Source: Myxococcota bacterium (GTDB lineage: Bacteria > Myxococcota_A > UBA9042 > PHBI01 > JAWLBL01). Taken from it: DNA of 64,000 nucleotides. This document shows positions 30,001 to 36,000 of this stretch, piece after piece; positions within the stretch are counted from its first letter, which is position 1; each line of letters opens with the position of its first letter. The stretch is from NCBI GenBank assembly GCA_041687695.1, contig JAWLBL010000002.1:318983-382982 (forward strand), read 5' to 3'. The position numbers are program-made.

Positions 30001-33000
30001 GCGATCCTGCCGGTGCCGGCGGCGGCGCTGAAGCTGGCGGTCGGCCCCGAGATGGCCGAGGAGCTGGTGCTGGCCAGCCAGCGTGTCGTGCCGCGGCGCC
30101 TCGAGGCGGCTGGCTTCCGCTTCGCGCATCCGCACCTCGAGGTCGCGCTGGCGAGGGCGCTCGGGATGCACGCGCCGGAGCCCGGATCGGCCTGGGCGTG
30201 ACCCGGGCGTGACGGTCTCGCTTGTCACGGCCGCGCGCGCCTTCTACCGTGCCCGGCCATGAGCAAGCGCACGCTATTGGTGATGGGGCTGGTCGGCGCG
30301 ATGGGCGCCGGCTGTGGGGACACGGGCGAGACGCCGCCGGCGGACACCGCCGTGACGGACGTGGCCGACGTCGGCAAGGGCGACGCTGCGGACGACGCCG
30401 AGCCGGACACCGCCGAGCCGGACGCCGCGGGCGACGTGGACGTCACGCCGGCGCCCGCGTTGCAGGCCGTCGAGGGCGAGCCCAACTTCGCGGTCGCCGC
30501 CGCCGGCTGGTACCGCGGCGACTTCCACTACCACACCAACTACAGCGGTGACGCCAAGGAGCAGGGCGGCGACGATCTGGCGGTGGCCATCGCCATCGCC
30601 GACGCCTACCGCGACCCGGTCTTCCTGGCGGCCAACCCGGACAAGGCGGGCAACGGCCTGGACTTCGTCGCCATCACGGACCACCGCACCGACGCGGCCT
30701 TCGCCGACCCGGACTTCACCCACGACCACCTCATCCTGGTCCCCGGCGAGGAGTACGGCGGCGGCGGACACGCCATCATCGCCGGCCTCGACCACCACAT
30801 CCCGCACGACGCGGCGGCCGGTCAGGCCCAGGACGCGCGCCACCTCGAGGCGATGGCCGAGGCGCACGCCCAGGGGGCCTTCTTCAGCATCAACCACCCG
30901 TGCCAGGAGAACATGTGGAACTGGTCGGTGGACCTGGTCGACGCCATCGAGCTCTGGAACGGGCCGTGGGCCTCGTTCTACACCGGCGCGTCCCCCGAGC
31001 ACGTCGAGGCCGAGGCGGCCGGCGCCGGCTTCATGAACCCCTTCCTGCCCGACGCGATCGCCAACGGCGGGACGGGTCACAACGACAAGGCGATGCGGTA
31101 CTGGCAGAACATGCTGACCGCCGGCCTGCACGTCGCACCCATCGGCGGCAGCGACCGCCACATGATCGTCCCGGCCGCCCTGCCGACCACCTACGTGCGC
31201 CGCCCGGCGAACCCGGCCTTCGAGGGCCTCGAGGGGCCGGCCCTGGGCTCCGACGGCATCGTCGCGGGGGTGCGTGAGGGCGGGACGTTCGTGTCGCGCT
31301 CGCCCTTCGGGGCGCAGATCGAGCTGACGGCGGTCAGCGCCGACGGGCAGGTCTTCCCGATGGGCGCCGAGCTGCCCGGCGCCGGCACCTACACGGTGCA
31401 GATGCGCGTCGGGCGCGCCGAGGGCGGCCGCCTGCGCCTGCTCAGCGGGCCGCTGAAGGCGCCGGTCGACGGGCACGTCAGCGCCGACGTGGCCGTGGTC
31501 TTCGACGAACCCATCCCCTCCGACCTCGCCAAAGGCGAGTTCACCTGGGAGGTCCCCGCCGAGGGCGCCTGGCTGCACGCGGTCGTCCTCGAGGACCTGA
31601 CGCCCGACCCGCTGCCGGAGGCCGTCCAGGAGGCGCTCGCCCACTTCCAGGTGGCCAGCGAGGGCAACGCCCTGGTGGTCATGGCCGGCGCCCTGGCGCC
31701 CCTGCTCGACATCAACATCCTGCTCGACCCCACCCTGTGCGATCCCGCGGCCTGGGACCCCTGGATGGGCCAGTGCATGCCGGTCGATCAAGGCACCCTG
31801 GCGACCTTCTACCTGCCCGATCGCATCGAGCGCCTCGTGCAGATCGTCTTCGAGGACGGCGCCGCGACCGACTGGGCCATGGGCGCCATCAGCTCGGCCT
31901 TCCTGGCGCGTCCCCAGTAGCGGCCAGGCGGGCGGCGCTGGGCTATCCTGACCCCATGCCGCCCGCCGCCCCCGTCCCCGCGCCGGCCGATCCCGCCGCG
32001 CTCCTCGCCGCCCTGGGCTCCCGCCCGCGCGTGGTCCTGGTCGGCGACGTGGGCAGCGGCAAGTCGACCCTCTCCGCCGCCCTCGCCGACGCCCTGGCCG
32101 CCTCCGGCGCCCCGGCGACCGGGATCTGCGCCGACCCCGGCCAGCCCGCCTTCGGCCCGCCCGGCGCCGCCTCCCTCGCCGCCCGCCGCGGCGGCGCCTG
32201 GCACCTCACCGCCCTCGAAGGCCTCGCCACCCTCGACGCCGGCCGCTACCGCCTCCCGCTGATCGAGGCCGTCCGCCGCCTGGCCGCCGCCACCGACGAC
32301 CAGCCCCTGGTCCTCGACGCCCCCGGCGTCGCCCGCGGCGCCCCGGCCGCCGAGCTGCTCCCCGCCCTGGTCGGTGCCGCCGGCGCCACCCACGTCCTCG
32401 CCCTCACCCAGGACGACGCCCCGCTCCCGGTCGCCGCCGAGCTCCTCGCCACCCCGGCCACCGTCCTGCACGTCCGCGCCGCCGCCGCCGCCGCCCCCCG
32501 GCCCCCCGCCGACCGCGTCACCTTCCGCACCGCCGCCTGGGACGCCTGGCTCACGGGCGCCCGTCCGCTCGCCCTGCCGCGCCTCGCCTTCGTCCTCGCC
32601 GGCCGCCCCGCCCTCGGCGACCCCGCCGCCTGGCCCGGCCGCCAGGTCGCCCTCCTCGACGCCTCCGGCGCCACGCTGACCCTCGCCCAGGTCGTCTCCC
32701 TCGCCCCCTCGCACCTCCACCTCCTCTCGCCTCCGGTCGACCCCGCCCGCGTCGCCGTCGTCCTCGTCCGCGACGCCGGCCGCGCCCCCGACGCCACGCT
32801 CGCGACCCGGCCCTGGCCCTCCCCGCGCCCGCCCCGCCCGCCCCCGCCGCGCCCCGGCGCCCGCCCCGACCTGCGCCTCGACCTCGGCCCGCCCCCCGCC
32901 GACCGCGTCACCCGCTTCGCCCCGGCCTTCCTCGGCGGCCTGTGGGACGACCCGACCCTGCACCTGCGCCACGACCTCGCGCGCCGCGGCGTCCTGTTCG

Positions 33001-36000
33001 ACCTGGGCGATCTGGGCGCCCTGCCGGCCAAGCTGGTCCACCAGCTCTCCGACGTCTTCGTCACCCACGCCCACATGGACCACTTCTCGGGCATGCTCGC
33101 GCTGCTCCGCCGCCGCCTCGGCGCCACCGCCCCCTGCCGCCTGTACGGCCCTCCCGGCCTCGCCGCCCGCGTCGCCGCCGCCATCGCCGCCTTCACCTGG
33201 GACCGCATCGGCGACGACGGCCCGCGCTTCCACGTCGCCGAGCTGCACGACGCCACCTTGCGCTGGACCGCCCTGCAGCCCGGCCGGCCCGCGGCCCCGC
33301 TCCCCGACACCCCGGCCCCCGCCGGCCAGCTCCTCGCCGACCGCGACCTCACCGTCCGCGCCGCGCCCCTCGACCACGCCGGCCTGCCCGTCCTCGCCTT
33401 CGCCCTGCGCGAGCGCGACCGCCACCTCGTCCGCCCCGACCGCCTCGCCGCCGCCCCGCACGCCCCCGGGCCCTGGGTCGGCGCCCTGGTGGCCGCCATG
33501 GACGCCGGCGCCGCCGACACCCTCATCCGCCTGCCCGACGGCGCCTCCGCCCCGGCCGCCCGCCTCGCCGCCGACCTCCTCACCCGCGAGCCGGGCCAGA
33601 CCGTCGCCTACGCCACCGACCTCGGCGACACCCCGAGCAACCGCGCCGCCCTCATCGCCCTCGCCCGCGGCGCCGATCTGCTGGTCTGCGAGGCGTCCTT
33701 CGCCCAGGCCGACGCCCCCCGCGCCGCCCGCACCGGCCACCTGACCGCCCGCGCCTGCGGCGAGATCGCCGCCGCCGCCGCCGTCCGCCGCCTCGCCCCC
33801 TTCCACCCCTCGCACCGCTACGAGGCCGACCCCGCGCCCCTGTACGCCGAGGTGCGCGCCGCCTTCTCCAACGCCCTCGCTCCGACCGGCCTCGACCTCA
33901 CCGCGCGCTGACCTCGGGCGCGGCCCGCCAGCGCAGCGTGTCGCCGACCCGCTCCAGCGGCGTCTCGAACCGCGCCCGCGACCCCTGCGCCAGCGGGTCC
34001 AGGATGGCGTCCGCCTCGGCCCCCGTCGCCAGCGCAGGCGCGCCGCCGGGCCGTCGCGTCAGCAGCGGGTGGACCACCAGCGCCTCGGCCCGCCACCCCG
34101 CCGCGCCCGGCGCGCGCGCCAGCGTCAGTTCGAAGGCGGCGCCGCGCCGTCCGTCGATCCGCACCATGTCGAACACCAGGTTGCCCATGTTGTACAGGAT
34201 GATCCCGTCGCCCCAGGCCTCGACCGGCTGCAGCACGTGCGCGTGGTGGCCCAGCACGGCCGTCGCCCCTGCGTCCACCAGGGCCCGCGCCAGCTGCTGC
34301 TGCCTCCGGTTGGGCCACGCCGTGAACTCGCCGCCCCAGTGCAGGGTCACCAGCACGACCTCCGCGCCGCCCTCCCGCAGCGCCCGCACCCGCGCCGGCA
34401 GGACCTCCAGCATCTCGCTCGTCGTCAGGAACGCCACCGGCACCGACTGCCCCGGCTTGGGCGTCCCGCGGTTGCGGCGCGTCGTGGCCGCCAGCACCGC
34501 GACCCGGACGCCGGACACGTCCAGCACCAGCGGCGCCAGCGGATCGCCCCCGACCGACGCCCCTACCGCCCCGACGCCGGCCCCCTCCAGGGCCAGCAGC
34601 GTCTCGGCCAGCCCCGCCTCGCCGCAGTCCTCGGCATGGTTGTTGGCCAGCACGGCCACGTCCACGCCCGCGTCCGCCAGGGCCCCCGCGTAGCGCGTGG
34701 GCGCCCGAAAGCGCAGGTGCCGCAGCGGCAGCTTCCGCGCCCGCACCAGCTCGTCGGGATCCACGTCCGACAGCGGCGTCTCCAGGTTCACCAGGGCCAG
34801 GTCGGCGGCGCGGGTCACCGGCGCGAGCTGCTCGAACGGGCGGTCGCCTCCGCTCGGGACCAGCGTGCGAAAGACGTACCGTCCGAACATGACGTCACCG
34901 CCGGCCACCACCCGCAGCCGCGCCGCACCCGCCTCGGTCGGGACCCGCTCGCGCCCGCGCTCGACCGCCGGGGGGCGCCGCATCGGCGTCGGCACCTCGG
35001 GGAGGCTGGCGCACGCCGCGGCCATCGAGACCCCCAGCCACGCGATCACGCTCGTCCACGCCGCCCTCATGGCGCGCAGCATAGGGCTGCGGCGCGCGCC
35101 GTACAGAAAGCCGCCGTCCCGCGCGCCCGTCGCCGCTTGCGGCCTCAGGATGGGCGGCGCCCCCTCGCGCGTTGAAGCTGTAACCGCCGTGAGTCGCTCG
35201 CGCCGCGTGGCCGGCGAGCCTGGCACTTCGTGTTGCGATGCGGGAGGCCCACCGTGAAACATTCCGCGTTGTCCGACCCCGAGGTGCCTCCTATCCTCGC
35301 GCCATTTCGCACAGGCCCCACGGCCGGACGGGCGGCCCTCGGCCGCTCGAGCCCTCGCCTGCCCCTGGCGCCGCCAGCGCATCGGGGCCCCGGGTCGCCC
35401 CCTGACCTCCTCAGTCGACCGCTCGACGGGTCCGCCTATCCCGAATGACGCCTCGTCCCCTCCGCCTGGTGCAGCGCCTCGCCCCCCGCTTCGCGGCGCT
35501 CCTCGTGCTCGTCCTCGGGCTGTCGTCGACGCTCGCCGCCTGGATGTACGTGTCCGAGAACGAACAGGCGCGCGCCAACCGCCGCTTCTACGACGCGGTC
35601 GAGCAGGTCACCCAGACCATCGAGCACCGCCTGGCCGCCTACATCTCCGTGCTGCTGGCGACCCGCGGGTTCCTCGACGCCAGCGAGACCATCACGCGCG
35701 ACGAGTTCCAGACTTTCATCCAGAGCGTCGAGGTCGGCACGCGCTTCCCCGGCGTGCAGGGGCTGGGGTTCGCGGCCTGGATCTCCGAGGACGAGCGCCC
35801 GGCCTTCGAGGCCCGCCTCCGCGCGCAGGGCCTGCCCGACTACCGGGTCTGGCCCGAAGGCCCCCGTGCGCGCTACGCGCCCATCGCCTTCATCGAGCCG
35901 CAGGACTGGCGCAACCGCCGCGCCATGGGCTTCGACATGTACTCCGACCCGGTGCGACGCGACGCCATGGATCGCGCCCGCGAGCACGCGCTGCCGGCCG

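Follow-up and report, generated by a model that had tools for sequence, protein, structure and literature searches.

A Clp1-type kinase fused to an RNase Z-like metallo-beta-lactamase is a candidate RNA end-healing enzyme in a Myxococcota bacterium

A gene in the 64,000-nucleotide stretch of Myxococcota DNA analysed here (the window) encodes a protein that joins a Clp1-type polynucleotide kinase to an RNase Z-like metallo-beta-lactamase (MBL). We give about an even chance to the view that it is a self-contained bifunctional RNA end-healing enzyme, for which we infer the activities, the substrate, a dimeric state and the downstream fate of the products. Most likely, both ends of a broken RNA are tidied, rather than an RNA being cut and the cut end then phosphorylated.

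The fusion gene and its two halves

The open reading frame at 31956-33911 on the forward strand translates without a stop into 651 amino acids. Its GC fractions at codon positions 1, 2 and 3 (0.845, 0.613 and 0.985) are as expected of a real gene in a genome of about 75% GC, and the neighbouring genes have GC3 values of 0.92-0.97. A homologue search returned 66 other 90%-identity clusters that are 40-52% identical across 65-100% of the length. Because 61 of these 66 carry PF12706 and PF16575 together, an assembly or frame artefact is ruled out as the source of the fusion. The AlphaFold2 model has a mean pLDDT of 91 and falls below 50 only at residues 291-302 of the linker and at the last three residues (649-651). 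The features are listed below with coordinates, strand and evidence.

31956..33911, +, fusion gene, 651 aa: Clp1-type kinase, linker and RNase Z-like MBL
32019..32555, +, Clp1-type P-loop polynucleotide kinase domain, residues ~22-200 (PF16575 at 30-198; profile and VIA matches)
32043..32069, +, Walker A GDVGSGKST, residues 30-38 (G30, G33, G35, K36 and T38 invariant in 51 homologues)
32130..32165, +, Clp1-family Walker B/acceptor-site motif ADPGQPAFGPPG, residues 59-70, with catalytic Asp60 (conservation and human CLP1 alignment)
32310..32339, +, clasp-equivalent stretch VLDAPGVARG, residues 119-128 (D121, P123 and G124 invariant in 51 homologues)
32508..32543, +, lid motif ADRVTFRTAAWD, residues 185-196, with R187 and R191 (these and W195 invariant; aligns to the human CLP1 lid)
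32556..32810, +, Clp1 C-terminal beta domain, residues 201-285, predicted docking surface for the MBL arm (VIA and Clp1 alignments)
32811..32912, +, Pro/Arg-rich flexible linker, residues 286-319 (pLDDT below 50 at 291-302; sequence)
32913..33890, +, RNase Z-like MBL domain, residues 320-645, divergent branch of NF002558/PRK02126 (NF002558, VIA and tree)
33060..33086, +, motif II HxHxDH (HAHMDH, 371-376) with H371, H373, D375 and H376 (invariant in 51 homologues)
33369..33818, +, remaining metal ligands and motifs H474, D555, H595 (GHLT) and H617 (all invariant in 51 homologues)
33420..33590, +, flexible arm (exosite) equivalent, residues 489-545, with G505-P-W507 and L526-P-D-G529 (E. coli RNase Z alignment)
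33898..35382, -, convergent CapA-like gene (PF09587 PGA_cap, Pfam E 1e-58)

By sequence and fold, the protein begins with a complete bacterial Clp1-type polynucleotide 5'-OH kinase (residues 1-285). Pfam places CLP1_P (PF16575) at residues 30-198 with E 1.7e-11 and 44.7 bits against a gathering cut-off of 26.6. When a profile built from the alignment (A2) was compared with human CLP1, the two matched at E 3.2e-24 and their motifs lined up. Structural comparison with VIA gave Z scores of 27 over 261-264 residues for human and C. elegans Clp1 (human 8hmy_E: Z 27.1, rmsd 2.7, 261 aligned); Grc3 from Las1-Grc3 complexes and CLP1 from the TSEN complex were also matched. The VIA alignments to Clp1 and Grc3 reach residues 277-281, standalone bacterial Clp1 proteins can be aligned with residues ~16-275, and a family-specific 'VRDA' lies at 271-274 in the C-terminal beta domain. 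In the profile alignment, the counterpart of the Walker B/acceptor-site motif in human CLP1 is 'LDVGQ..IPGT'; in this motif, which includes D60-P-G-Q, residues D60, P61, G62, P64, G67 and P69 are invariant in the 51 homologues. Eight kinase residues (G30, G35, K36, D60, G62, G124, R187 and R191) do not vary in 32 sequences that include standalone bacterial Clp1. The clasp differs: VLDAPGVARG aligns with 'INTCGWVKG' of human CLP1, and where the eukaryotic TxGW clasp has Trp there is Val, a difference that we count against end healing.

Residues 320-645 are a whole RNase Z-like MBL that has kept its flexible arm. Lactamase_B_2 (PF12706) matches residues 360-617 with E 4.2e-16 and 59.6 bits against a cut-off of 27. 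In structure this half comes closest to B. subtilis RNase Z (VIA Z 28.0-28.4); the tRNA-bound form 2fk6_A aligns over 280 of 307 residues with Z 28.0 and rmsd 2.3. Residues 489-545 line up with the arm of E. coli RNase Z (2cbn). Among the curated profiles, NF002558 (PRK02126, 'ribonuclease Z') is matched at 262.4 bits over profile positions 5-338 of 345, below its cut-off of 315, and TIGR02651 at 94.5 bits, below 292.95. That both cut-offs are missed also counts against end healing.

Both catalytic motif sets are invariant in the 51 aligned homologues, and to judge from these residues both domains look catalytically competent. The genome-wide survey's note had described a rare two-domain fusion in an uncharacterised family with RNA-end chemistry as its likely theme. 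The boundaries and motifs are borne out, and we agree on the family and the theme. 'Rare' is fair, with at least 18 fused loci among GTDB species genomes; strict Pfam counts of PF16575 do miss family members, as in a Halomonas genome that carries a fused locus (L005) and in which a Pfam search at E<=1e-6 found no PF16575. The suggestion of a new function for bacterial Clp1-like kinases was overstated, RNA 5'-OH kinase activity having been reported for Thermus scotoductus Ts-Clp1 (PMC6777427).

Healing, cutting and a predicted kinase-nuclease interface

In end-healing enzymes such as T4 Pnkp, bacterial Pnkp and Trl1, the reported standard build is a 5'-OH kinase joined to a 3'-phosphoesterase whose fold varies, which speaks for end healing here. 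Short RNase Z enzymes are described in tRNA 3'-end repair, with ELAC1 reported to repair ANKZF1-cleaved tRNAs and TMS5 to take 2',3'-cyclic phosphate off tRNAs without CCA. In this reading, the N-terminal kinase would transfer an NTP phosphate to a 5'-OH RNA end, giving a 5'-phosphate, and the C-terminal binuclear-metal phosphodiesterase would convert a 2',3'-cyclic phosphate, or extra 3' nucleotides or a trailer, to a 3'-OH. The two sites would thus treat two different 'dirty' ends and not successive steps on the enzyme's own cut. Metal-independent ribonucleases and toxins leave 5'-OH and 2',3'-cyclic phosphate ends. The retained RNase Z arm suggests that the substrate is probably a tRNA or tRNA-like RNA, and the particle is probably a dimer like RNase Z.

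The survey's note had instead proposed that one polypeptide cuts RNA and then phosphorylates the new 5'-OH. In this version the MBL domain would make an endonucleolytic cut for the kinase to follow, an order known from Las1-Grc3. Clp1-family kinases are typically paired with a nuclease whose 5'-OH product they phosphorylate, the structural matches to Grc3 and to TSEN-bound CLP1 point the same way, and the two halves are predicted to dock. However, the nucleases of the Las1-Grc3 and TSEN machines are metal-independent and leave 5'-OH ends, whereas the kinase is here joined to an MBL whose binuclear-metal site is fully conserved. Binuclear-zinc MBL nucleases (RNase Z, CPSF73 and RNase J) leave a 3'-OH and a 5'-phosphate, so that an end cut in this way needs no kinase. 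We therefore consider cutting followed by phosphorylation highly improbable. The parallel drawn with CPSF73-Clp1 is superficial, since that machinery does not rely on the kinase activity to complete cleavage.

When residues 1-290 were paired with 305-651 in a complex prediction, the score was 0.70 (0.70, 0.75 and 0.69 in the three runs), and the docking controls gave 0.00 as best of three. Of 157 solved complexes, 116 score at least 0.70, as do 2 of 215 mismatched pairs, a benchmark that is only rough here as our own alignment was used. The runs share at least 96% of contacts, with partner pLDDT of at least 87. The predicted interface sets kinase residues 204-285 against arm residues 491-529. 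Among 34 members of the fused clade, conservation of its arm motif L-P-D-G (526-529) stands at 85-94%; among 70 standalone forms it is only 19-24% for P527, D528 and G529. This model, which is new and counts in favour of end healing, places the kinase C-terminal domain on the nuclease arm, where it would ride as part of an integrated machine. A kinase so seated might block canonical tRNA elbow binding, which counts against end healing.

Fate of the RNA ends

The output of end healing, 5'-phosphate and 3'-OH, would suit CCA re-addition or 5'-phosphate-dependent or 3'-exonucleolytic decay better than ligation by RtcB. RtcB needs unhealed ends, for which 5'-phosphate and 3'-OH are unsuitable. It is present in the window's own genome and in 13/17 carrier genomes, no higher a share than in control genomes (10/14). 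A classical 5'-phosphate/3'-OH RNA ligase for sealing healed ends is mostly missing: a search limited to the ligase family PF09414 found none in the own genome and a match in 1/17 carriers. Both the RtcB and the ligase results count against end healing.

These ligase data also bear on a reading in which the kinase licenses decay: 5'-OH fragments would receive a 5'-phosphate and have their 3' ends unblocked for clearance, not repair, and would be destroyed by 5'-phosphate-sensing and 3'-exonucleolytic enzymes or by the MBL domain itself. The lack of a PF09414-type ligase in the own genome and 16/17 other carriers, and an output unsuited to the RtcB that most carriers have, would fit, as would the mostly solitary fused genes, in keeping with a housekeeping-style role. 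Against this, standalone relatives share operons with RtcB and the cyclase RtcA, pointing to repair, and RNase Z-type enzymes are not known to require a 5'-phosphate. We regard this reading as rather unlikely.

A similarly small chance goes to the protein being a housekeeping tRNA 3'-end maturase, with the MBL as RNase Z and the Clp1 half, inactive as a kinase, as an accessory RNA-binding or NTP-dependent regulatory module. Besides the retained arm, the RNase Z content of the genomes speaks for it. No protein of the own genome exceeds the TIGR02651 cut-off, the best match being the fusion gene (95 bits), and 27 of 60 tRNAs predicted there by aragorn lack an encoded CCA. None of five other genomes with PRK02126-type or fused genes has a canonical RNase Z above cut-off, and in four of the five such a gene is the best RNase Z match. 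The MBL half might thus be the housekeeping RNase Z of those organisms, a point against end healing. However, in the order and class none of the 31 genomes searched, counting the own one, passes the cut-off: among the 30 relatives, 29 fall far short and one (G015) reaches 282.2 of 292.95 bits. The clade therefore mostly matures tRNA without a TIGR02651-type RNase Z, which weakens the case for a maturase, and the kinase catalytic residues, all invariant across phyla, argue against a dead module.

Gene neighbours and relatives

The survey's note had found no hint in the neighbours. This holds for most fused loci: across 31 of them no common neighbourhood was found, save one RtcA gene 4.4 kb off. 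The wider PRK02126 family is different: RtcA, RtcB, CapA-like and, once, separate Clp1 genes beside its standalone members are a new observation. In 5/126 loci, all standalone relatives, an RtcA gene is no more than 600 bp from the MBL gene. RtcB accompanies the standalone MBL in two to three loci, overlapping its start in L018 and lying 1.1 kb away in L021 and 3.4 kb in L025. The RtcA and RtcB neighbours of the parent family speak for end healing; that these links are seen beside standalone relatives is counted against it for the fused forms.

A CapA-like gene adjoins the MBL gene in 12/126 loci (nine standalone and three fused, the window included). In the window the last 14 nt of this gene, at the 3' end, lie within the fusion gene; it is a divergent paralogue, a second copy in the genome having the higher score, and is a possible partner of the fusion enzyme. 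The sole NCBIfam match of these neighbours is a lasso-peptide epimerase (MslH), far below cut-off, so that they may not concern RNA at all, which again counts against end healing. The same gene enters a reading with a non-RNA substrate: DNA ends processed as PNKP does, or a small-molecule or peptide-linked phosphodiester, possibly handled with the CapA-like neighbour. Its recurrence and its peptide-epimerase match favour this, as do the PhnP-family diphosphatases and cyclic-nucleotide phosphodiesterases among the related MBLs in the match list; archaeal and bacterial Clp1 are also reported to phosphorylate DNA, less well than RNA (PMC6777427). Yet RNase Z with its tRNA arm gives the best structural and sequence matches, and RtcA and RtcB are RNA-end enzymes, and we judge a non-RNA substrate very unlikely.

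A quick tree covered 104 of the 126 loci, omitting 22 whose domains were partial. In it the fused MBL domains group as a single clade within NF002558 (SH-aLRT 100, stem length 0.87); nine of ten standalone relatives tested pass the NF002558 cut-off. At one locus (L020), a standalone MBL gene lies tail-to-tail with the only CLP1_P gene of a 5.1-Mb genome. This MBL is not sister to the fused clade, and the locus thus looks like an independent association of kinase and MBL, which we count in favour of end healing.

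The fused gene and its family

We found an uninterrupted open reading frame (ORF) of 651 codons at window positions 31956-33911 (+). Its GC content by codon position is 0.845/0.613/0.985 and the third-position GC content (GC3) of neighbouring genes is 0.92-0.97; because of this signature the ORF can be taken as a real coding sequence in a genome of about 75% GC, and the long antisense ORFs are shadows. Pfam assigned CLP1_P (PF16575) to residues 30-198 (E 1.7e-11; 44.7 bits, which passes the gathering cut-off of 26.6) and Lactamase_B_2 (PF12706) to residues 360-617 (E 4.2e-16), and both motifs that the genome-wide survey's note had cited are indeed present in the protein sequence.

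A word-indexed search matched the fusion protein to 66 other 90%-identity clusters at E <= 1.6e-79, with 40-52% identity across 65-100% of the query. Both Pfam domains were found in 61 of these 66 clusters, whose named sources include Halomonas, Thiohalocapsa, Thiodiazotropha, 'Deltaproteobacteria' and Schekmanbacteria. In an alignment of 51 fused homologues (A1) the invariant residues of the kinase half are G30, G33, G35, K36, T38, D60, P61, G62, P64, G67, P69, D121, P123, G124, R187, R191, and W195, and those of the metallo-beta-lactamase (MBL) half are D349, H371, H373, D375, H376, H474, D555, H595, and H617. Because the catalytic residues are invariant, we infer purifying selection on both active sites across phyla, and on sequence grounds the fusion is conserved rather than accidental. 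Our literature search returned no paper on a Clp1-MBL fusion or on a link between RtcA and the PRK02126 family; the likeliest survey (Burroughs & Aravind, 2016; NAR 44:8525) lay outside its scope, so an earlier description is possible. The strict CLP1_P census undercounts the fused family, because a whole-genome search with PF16575 (E<=1e-6) missed the fused gene of locus L005, in a Halomonas genome (G034).

To place the fusion among its relatives we used 61 loci from species genomes among the matches listed and 80 from metagenomes, of which 125 (L001-L045 and L066-L145) were kept, giving 126 with the window. The fused form occurs in 31 of the 126 and the MBL alone in 94, some of which are fused genes broken by a contig end or a frameshift; one locus has neither. 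A quick IQ-TREE run used the 104 loci in which the MBL domain spans 80% or more of the profile and omitted the remaining 22; midpoint rooting served for drawing only. All 30 fused sequences in this tree, together with four labelled 'alone', formed one clade (SH-aLRT 100, stem 0.87) nested among standalone sequences of the PRK02126 type. Three of the four 'alone' members (L008, L072, and L076) touch a contig end, and the fourth (L081) matches the query from residue 245 only. One ancient fusion would be the simplest reading of this topology. Split forms were also considered: N-terminal-only matches of about 300 aa with 40-50% identity (for example the protein P0109) reach as far as the linker or the beginning of the MBL domain and look like products of truncated contigs, and we therefore claim no genuine fission product.

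The two halves and their predicted docking

With residues 1-290 as the query, an exhaustive phmmer search yielded 355 matches at E <= 1e-3, among which fused proteins of 600-700 aa ranked first and standalone proteins of 270-320 aa next. The standalone proteins share 25-33% identity with the query, match CLP1_P at E 1e-23 to 1e-32, and align over residues ~16-275; because of this alignment the N-terminal half is taken as a whole bacterial Clp1, with a kinase domain and a small C-terminal beta domain, and residues 1-285 have the same length and layout as the standalone form. The fusion protein differs from standalone Clp1 in being covalently joined to an MBL nuclease and in a 'VRDA' motif (271-274), which is specific to the C-terminal domain of the fused forms. 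Walker A (GxxxxGK[ST]) is present as GDVGSGKST at residues 30-38. The Walker B or acceptor motif D-x-G-Q, with its catalytic Asp, is present as D60-P-G-Q, aligned to LDVGQ of human CLP1, and neither D60 nor G62 varies among the fused or the standalone sequences. An alignment that includes standalone bacterial Clp1 (A2) leaves G30, G35, K36, D60, G62, P69, G124, R187, and R191 invariant; R187 and R191, invariant in A1 as well, align to the lid of human CLP1. The A2 profile matched human CLP1 (E 3.2e-24) and kept four elements in register, namely Walker A, LDVGQ, the stretch at the clasp, and the lid; C. elegans Clp1, Grc3, and NOL9 came next in the match list. Opposite the TxGW clasp, whose Trp stacks on a base, stands D-A-P-G-V, in which G124 is invariant and the Trp position holds Val or another hydrophobic residue; this position is variable in standalone bacterial Clp1 too. 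The protein thus shares with Clp1, Grc3, and Nol9 a P-loop kinase with a C-terminal beta domain, Walker A, D-x-G-Q, and the lid arginines, but differs from eukaryotic Clp1 in lacking a eukaryotic-type N-terminal domain and in having Val for the clasp Trp.

We predict 5'-OH polynucleotide kinase activity for the N-terminal half. RNA 5'-OH kinase activity has been published for a bacterial Clp1, Ts-Clp1 (PMC6777427). The survey in the same paper reports a size of 333 +/- 74 aa for bacterial Clp1 and its presence in 14 of 1,543 species; the main text and one supplement make no mention of an MBL fusion, nor of lactamase, RNase Z, MBL, or Halomonas.

The C-terminal half matches NF002558, the PRK02126 'ribonuclease Z' subfamily, over its full length (residues 321-643 correspond to profile positions 5-338 of 345) with 262.4 bits, under the cut-off of 315. 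On TIGR02651, the canonical RNase Z equivalog, it scores 94.5 bits, under the cut-off of 292.95. Of ten standalone MBLs tested, nine exceed the NF002558 cut-off, with scores of 380-467 bits, and these nine reach only 79-125 bits on TIGR02651. A literature search found no experimental characterisation of the NF002558 subfamily.

We modelled the protein with AlphaFold2 on alignment A1 (mean pLDDT 91, pTM 0.60); pLDDT fell below 50 only at residues 291-302, in the Pro-rich linker, and at the three C-terminal residues, 649-651. Foldseek and VIA-align agreed on the structural matches; by VIA-align, Grc3 chains additionally gave Z 20.4-22.8, and rice RNase ZS1 (TMS5) gave Z 20.3 against the MBL half.

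Structural matches of the AlphaFold2 model (VIA-align)
Human CLP1, 8hmy_E; model residues 9-277; Z 27.1; rmsd 2.7; 261 aligned
C. elegans Clp1, 4ohy_A; model residues 9-280; Z 27.0; rmsd 2.9; 264 aligned
B. subtilis RNase Z, 1y44_A; model residues 321-643; Z 28.4; rmsd 2.0; 243 aligned
B. subtilis RNase Z, tRNA-bound, 2fk6_A; model residues 321-643; Z 28.0; rmsd 2.3; 280/307 aligned
E. coli ZiPD, 2cbn; model residues 320-644; Z 26.5; rmsd 4.0; 281 aligned
Human ELAC1, 3zwf_A; model residues 321-644; Z 23.6; rmsd 2.8; 229 aligned

All metal ligands of the RNase Z type (HxHxDH plus further His and Asp) are present and invariant (H371, H373, D375, H376, H474, D555, H595, and H617). Residues 489-545 aligned by HMMER to the region of the flexible arm, the tRNA exosite, in 2cbn; because the E. 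coli alignment spans this region, the RNase Z-specific exosite is taken as kept. The MBL half therefore resembles the short-form RNase Z enzymes (B. subtilis RNase Z, E. coli ZiPD/RNase BN, ELAC1, and TMS5/RNase ZS1) in fold, metal ligands, and flexible arm, but its identity to them is only 19-28% and its TIGR02651 score is far under the cut-off. Cleavage of tRNA 3' trailers is a putative activity of this half. The E. coli enzyme has G-P-L/F in the alignment where the fusion protein has G-P-W on its arm, and the latter arm is predicted to hold the kinase. With standalone PRK02126 proteins of about 345 aa the fused form shares the full-length profile match and the invariant G505 and W507 of the arm; it differs by its kinase, by the clade-specific arm motif L-P-D-G, and by the long stem (0.87) of the fused clade.

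We predicted a complex of residues 1-290 with residues 305-651, using our own alignment, in three runs with three controls. The docking score was 0.70 (runs 0.70, 0.75, and 0.69) and the best control scored 0.00; the docking mark is reached by 116 of 157 solved complexes and by 2 of 215 mismatched pairs, figures that are approximate here since our own alignment was used. At least 96% of the contacts were common to the runs, with a partner pLDDT of at least 87. The prediction supports binding of the kinase half to the MBL half, through a putative interface between the Clp1 C-terminal domain (204-206, 219-228, 245-257, and 275-285) and the arm (491-513, 525-529, and 545). Two residues of the arm, G505 and W507, are 100% conserved in fused (n=34) and standalone (n=70) forms. 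The fused clade conserves L526 (91%), P527 (94%), D528 (85%), and G529 (88%), whereas standalone forms mostly have Val at position 526 (49%) and match the next three positions less often (P 23%, D 19%, G 24%). A kinase seated on the arm may either block or extend the tRNA-binding surface. One Schekmanbacteria member, P0057, has lost most of the flexible arm, the predicted kinase docking site (A1 columns about 640-690).

Gene neighbourhoods and the housekeeping RNase Z question

ORF clustering of 17 fused loci plus the window, of 45 loci plus the window, and of 126 loci did not find an operon shared among fused genes. Flanking sequence of 1.5 kb or more on either side was available for only 64 of 124 loci, so the neighbour figures below, given as raw counts, are lower bounds as fractions.

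Genes flanking the fusion gene in the window
30259-31920 (+), upstream ORF of 553 aa, GC3 0.97, with a gap of 35 bp to the fusion gene
33898-35382 (-), downstream convergent CapA-like gene (PF09587 PGA_cap)

The upstream ORF has no firm Pfam family (a weak DUF3604 match, E 0.0024) and is not conserved beside homologues of the fusion gene elsewhere. A CapA-like gene is the sole recurring neighbour of fused genes, in three fused loci (the window, L011, and L013). With standalone relatives counted too, 12 of 126 loci have a CapA-like ORF directly beside the MBL gene, in arrangements that include co-directional, convergent, and divergent ones; the remaining nine are standalone MBL loci (L017, L019, L031, L040, L084, L115, L121, L126, and L132). 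In the window the CapA-like gene is a divergent paralogue; another copy in the same genome (G000:C7:255920-257356) scores higher on the family profile. The only NCBIfam match of the CapA-like proteins is the lasso-peptide epimerase MslH, far under its cut-off.

RNA repair genes were found beside the standalone relatives. RtcA (PF01137) lies <600 bp from a standalone MBL gene in 5 of the 126 loci, and in one further locus the end of an RtcB (PF01139) gene overlaps the MBL start.

Rtc genes adjoining MBL genes (locus, positions, arrangement)
L089, 1503-3658, RtcA and standalone MBL, overlapping and co-directional
L100, 116-2302, RtcA and standalone MBL, divergent
L093, 1293-3578, RtcA and standalone MBL, divergent
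L019, 5021-8077, RtcA and standalone MBL, divergent
L091, 1417-4171, RtcA and standalone MBL, convergent
L018, 5571-8032, RtcB gene end overlapping the MBL start

At greater distances, RtcB lies 1.1 kb from the MBL gene in L021 and 3.4 kb in L025, and the only RtcA near a fused gene is in L079, at 4.4 kb. Because standalone genes adjoin RtcA in five loci and RtcB in L018, this gene order suggests a place for the NF002558 subfamily in Rtc-type RNA repair, not in routine tRNA maturation.

A kinase-MBL pairing without fusion was found in L020, from a Beijerinckiaceae metagenome-assembled genome, where a standalone PRK02126 MBL gene and a standalone CLP1_P gene lie tail-to-tail, the pair having these positions:
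7001-7948 (+)
7961-8971 (-)

The CLP1_P gene (E 6.6e-33) is the only CLP1_P match in this 5.1-Mb genome, and the MBL is not sister to the fused clade in the quick tree. By gene order and phylogeny, L020 is probably an unfused version of the kinase-MBL pairing with an origin separate from the fused clade.

Several other neighbours were set aside. An archaeal Clp1 gene 4 kb from the MBL gene in L047 was treated as chance, and histidine kinases near homologues in 10-13 loci as generic paralogy of an abundant family. Five related loci of betaproteobacterial type, all with a standalone MBL, encode a protein of ~540 aa with a weak APH-like match at the N-terminus and an AAA_33 P-loop kinase domain (L018, 9631-11274; L037, 3643-5238; L109, 10721-12343; L024; and L025); there was too little evidence to call it a polynucleotide kinase (Pnkp E 1e-4 in one of five; distance 0.2-3.7 kb).

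We also considered that the fusion gene might serve as the housekeeping RNase Z of its clade. Its own genome, 99% complete, has no canonical RNase Z above the TIGR02651 cut-off, the best match being the fusion gene itself, and 27 of its 60 aragorn tRNA predictions, some long ones of which may be false, are without an encoded CCA. None of five other genomes with a PRK02126 or fused gene has a canonical RNase Z above the cut-off either. The cut-off was, however, passed by none of the 31 genomes of the same order and class (own genome included), with 29 of the 30 relatives far under it and one (G015) at 282.2 of 292.95 bits. Because none of the 31 passes, this order and class mostly mature tRNA without a canonical RNase Z, and we rejected the housekeeping role as the main reading; the fusion gene looks like an acquired accessory in this genome.

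Elsewhere in the window, the two flanks (24828-27999 and 35445-37682) are rich in signalling genes, namely an adenylate/guanylate cyclase, a Ser/Thr kinase fused to a receiver domain, and a CHASE-GAF histidine kinase. Two further ORFs, 28021-30228 (-) and 29227-30201 (+), overlap on opposite strands with Pfam matches to radical SAM (E 5.5e-10) and to NAD-dependent epimerase plus DUF1731; because both overlap and both have matches, one gene must be shorter than its ORF.

A candidate role in RNA end healing

When toxins, stress nucleases, or self-cleavage break RNA, the fragments have 5'-OH and 2',3'-cyclic-phosphate ends, which normal ligases, the CCA-adding enzyme, and decay enzymes are unable to use. 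The end-healing enzymes known to date pair a T4-type kinase with an esterase of one of four folds. MBL nucleases leave 5'-phosphate and 3'-OH ends. The survey's note had proposed that the MBL domain cuts RNA and that the kinase then phosphorylates the new 5'-OH end; this order is unlikely, since the MBL cut should already yield a 5'-phosphate, and the kinase would therefore not be finishing the nuclease's own cut.

Our best reading, to which we give an even chance, is that the fusion protein is a bifunctional RNA end healer acting on tRNA-like RNA, in which the kinase would convert 5'-OH to 5'-phosphate and the MBL half a blocked 3' end to 3'-OH. We base it on the logic of end-healing enzymes, which according to published accounts routinely pair a 5'-OH kinase with a 2',3'-phosphoesterase of varying fold in one polypeptide, on the precedent of the short RNase Z enzymes ELAC1 and TMS5, described as tRNA 3'-end repair enzymes that remove 2',3'-cyclic phosphate, and on the associations with RtcA, RtcB, and Clp1.

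Two groups of known RNA-end machines invite comparison. In Las1-Grc3/Nol9 and TSEN-CLP1 a Clp1-family kinase is likewise physically coupled to an RNA nuclease; the C-terminal region of the kinase mediates this coupling, as our model predicts for the fusion protein. Their nucleases (HEPN and TSEN endonuclease) are metal-independent and make the 5'-OH for the kinase, whereas the partner here is an MBL with an intact metal site rather than a HEPN nuclease, is expected to leave a 5'-phosphate, and is part of one chain instead of a multi-subunit complex. T4 Pnkp, bacterial Pnkp (of Pnkp-Hen1), and fungal and plant Trl1 are described as uniting a kinase and a 2',3'-phosphoesterase in one polypeptide, and HD-Pnk follows the same logic. 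These enzymes differ in having a T4-Pnk-type kinase and esterases of DxD, calcineurin-type, 2H, or HD fold, not MBL; in the fusion protein PF13671 scored E 0.51, and Pfam matched no DxD, calcineurin, HD, or 2H esterase family. We regard the resemblance to bacterial Pnkp and T4 Pnkp as a functional analogy only. The fusion protein also differs from end-healing enzymes in being without a ligase domain, and the PF09414 RNA ligase is missing from most carrier genomes (none in its own genome, 1 of 17 others). RtcB is present in the own genome and in 13 of 17 other carriers, no more commonly than in controls (10 of 14); in the own genome rtcA and rtcB form a pair, on a contig other than that of the fusion gene.

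If true, the end-healer reading would make a Clp1-type kinase with an RNase Z-type nuclease a new end-healing architecture. It would place the rare bacterial Clp1 proteins in a physiological context and supply a function for the PRK02126 'ribonuclease Z' subfamily, which is unstudied and owes its NCBI name to homology only. The RtcA and RtcB links can be tested as a connection to the Rtc repair system; the natural substrates of that system are described as still debated (PMC7790460). Compact size and the self-sufficiency suggested by mostly solitary genes make the enzyme straightforward to test biochemically, and it could become an RNA end-polishing reagent.

A bolder and, in our estimate, unlikely reading sees in PRK02126 a nuclease devoted to the repair of RNA 3' ends within the Rtc world of bacteria, and in the fused form a one-protein 'end converter'. 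The PRK02126 branch would strip 2',3'-cyclic phosphates or damaged 3' tails off tRNA. With the Clp1 kinase clamped on the tRNA-gripping arm, the fused form would bind one broken tRNA-like RNA and change both ends in a single encounter, from the RtcB type (5'-OH, 2',3'-cyclic phosphate) to the classical type (5'-phosphate, 3'-OH); the end switch would decide between resealing of the RNA, addition of a new CCA end, and destruction. RNA end healing would then have a fifth solution, built on an MBL, and bacteria their first Clp1-nuclease machine.
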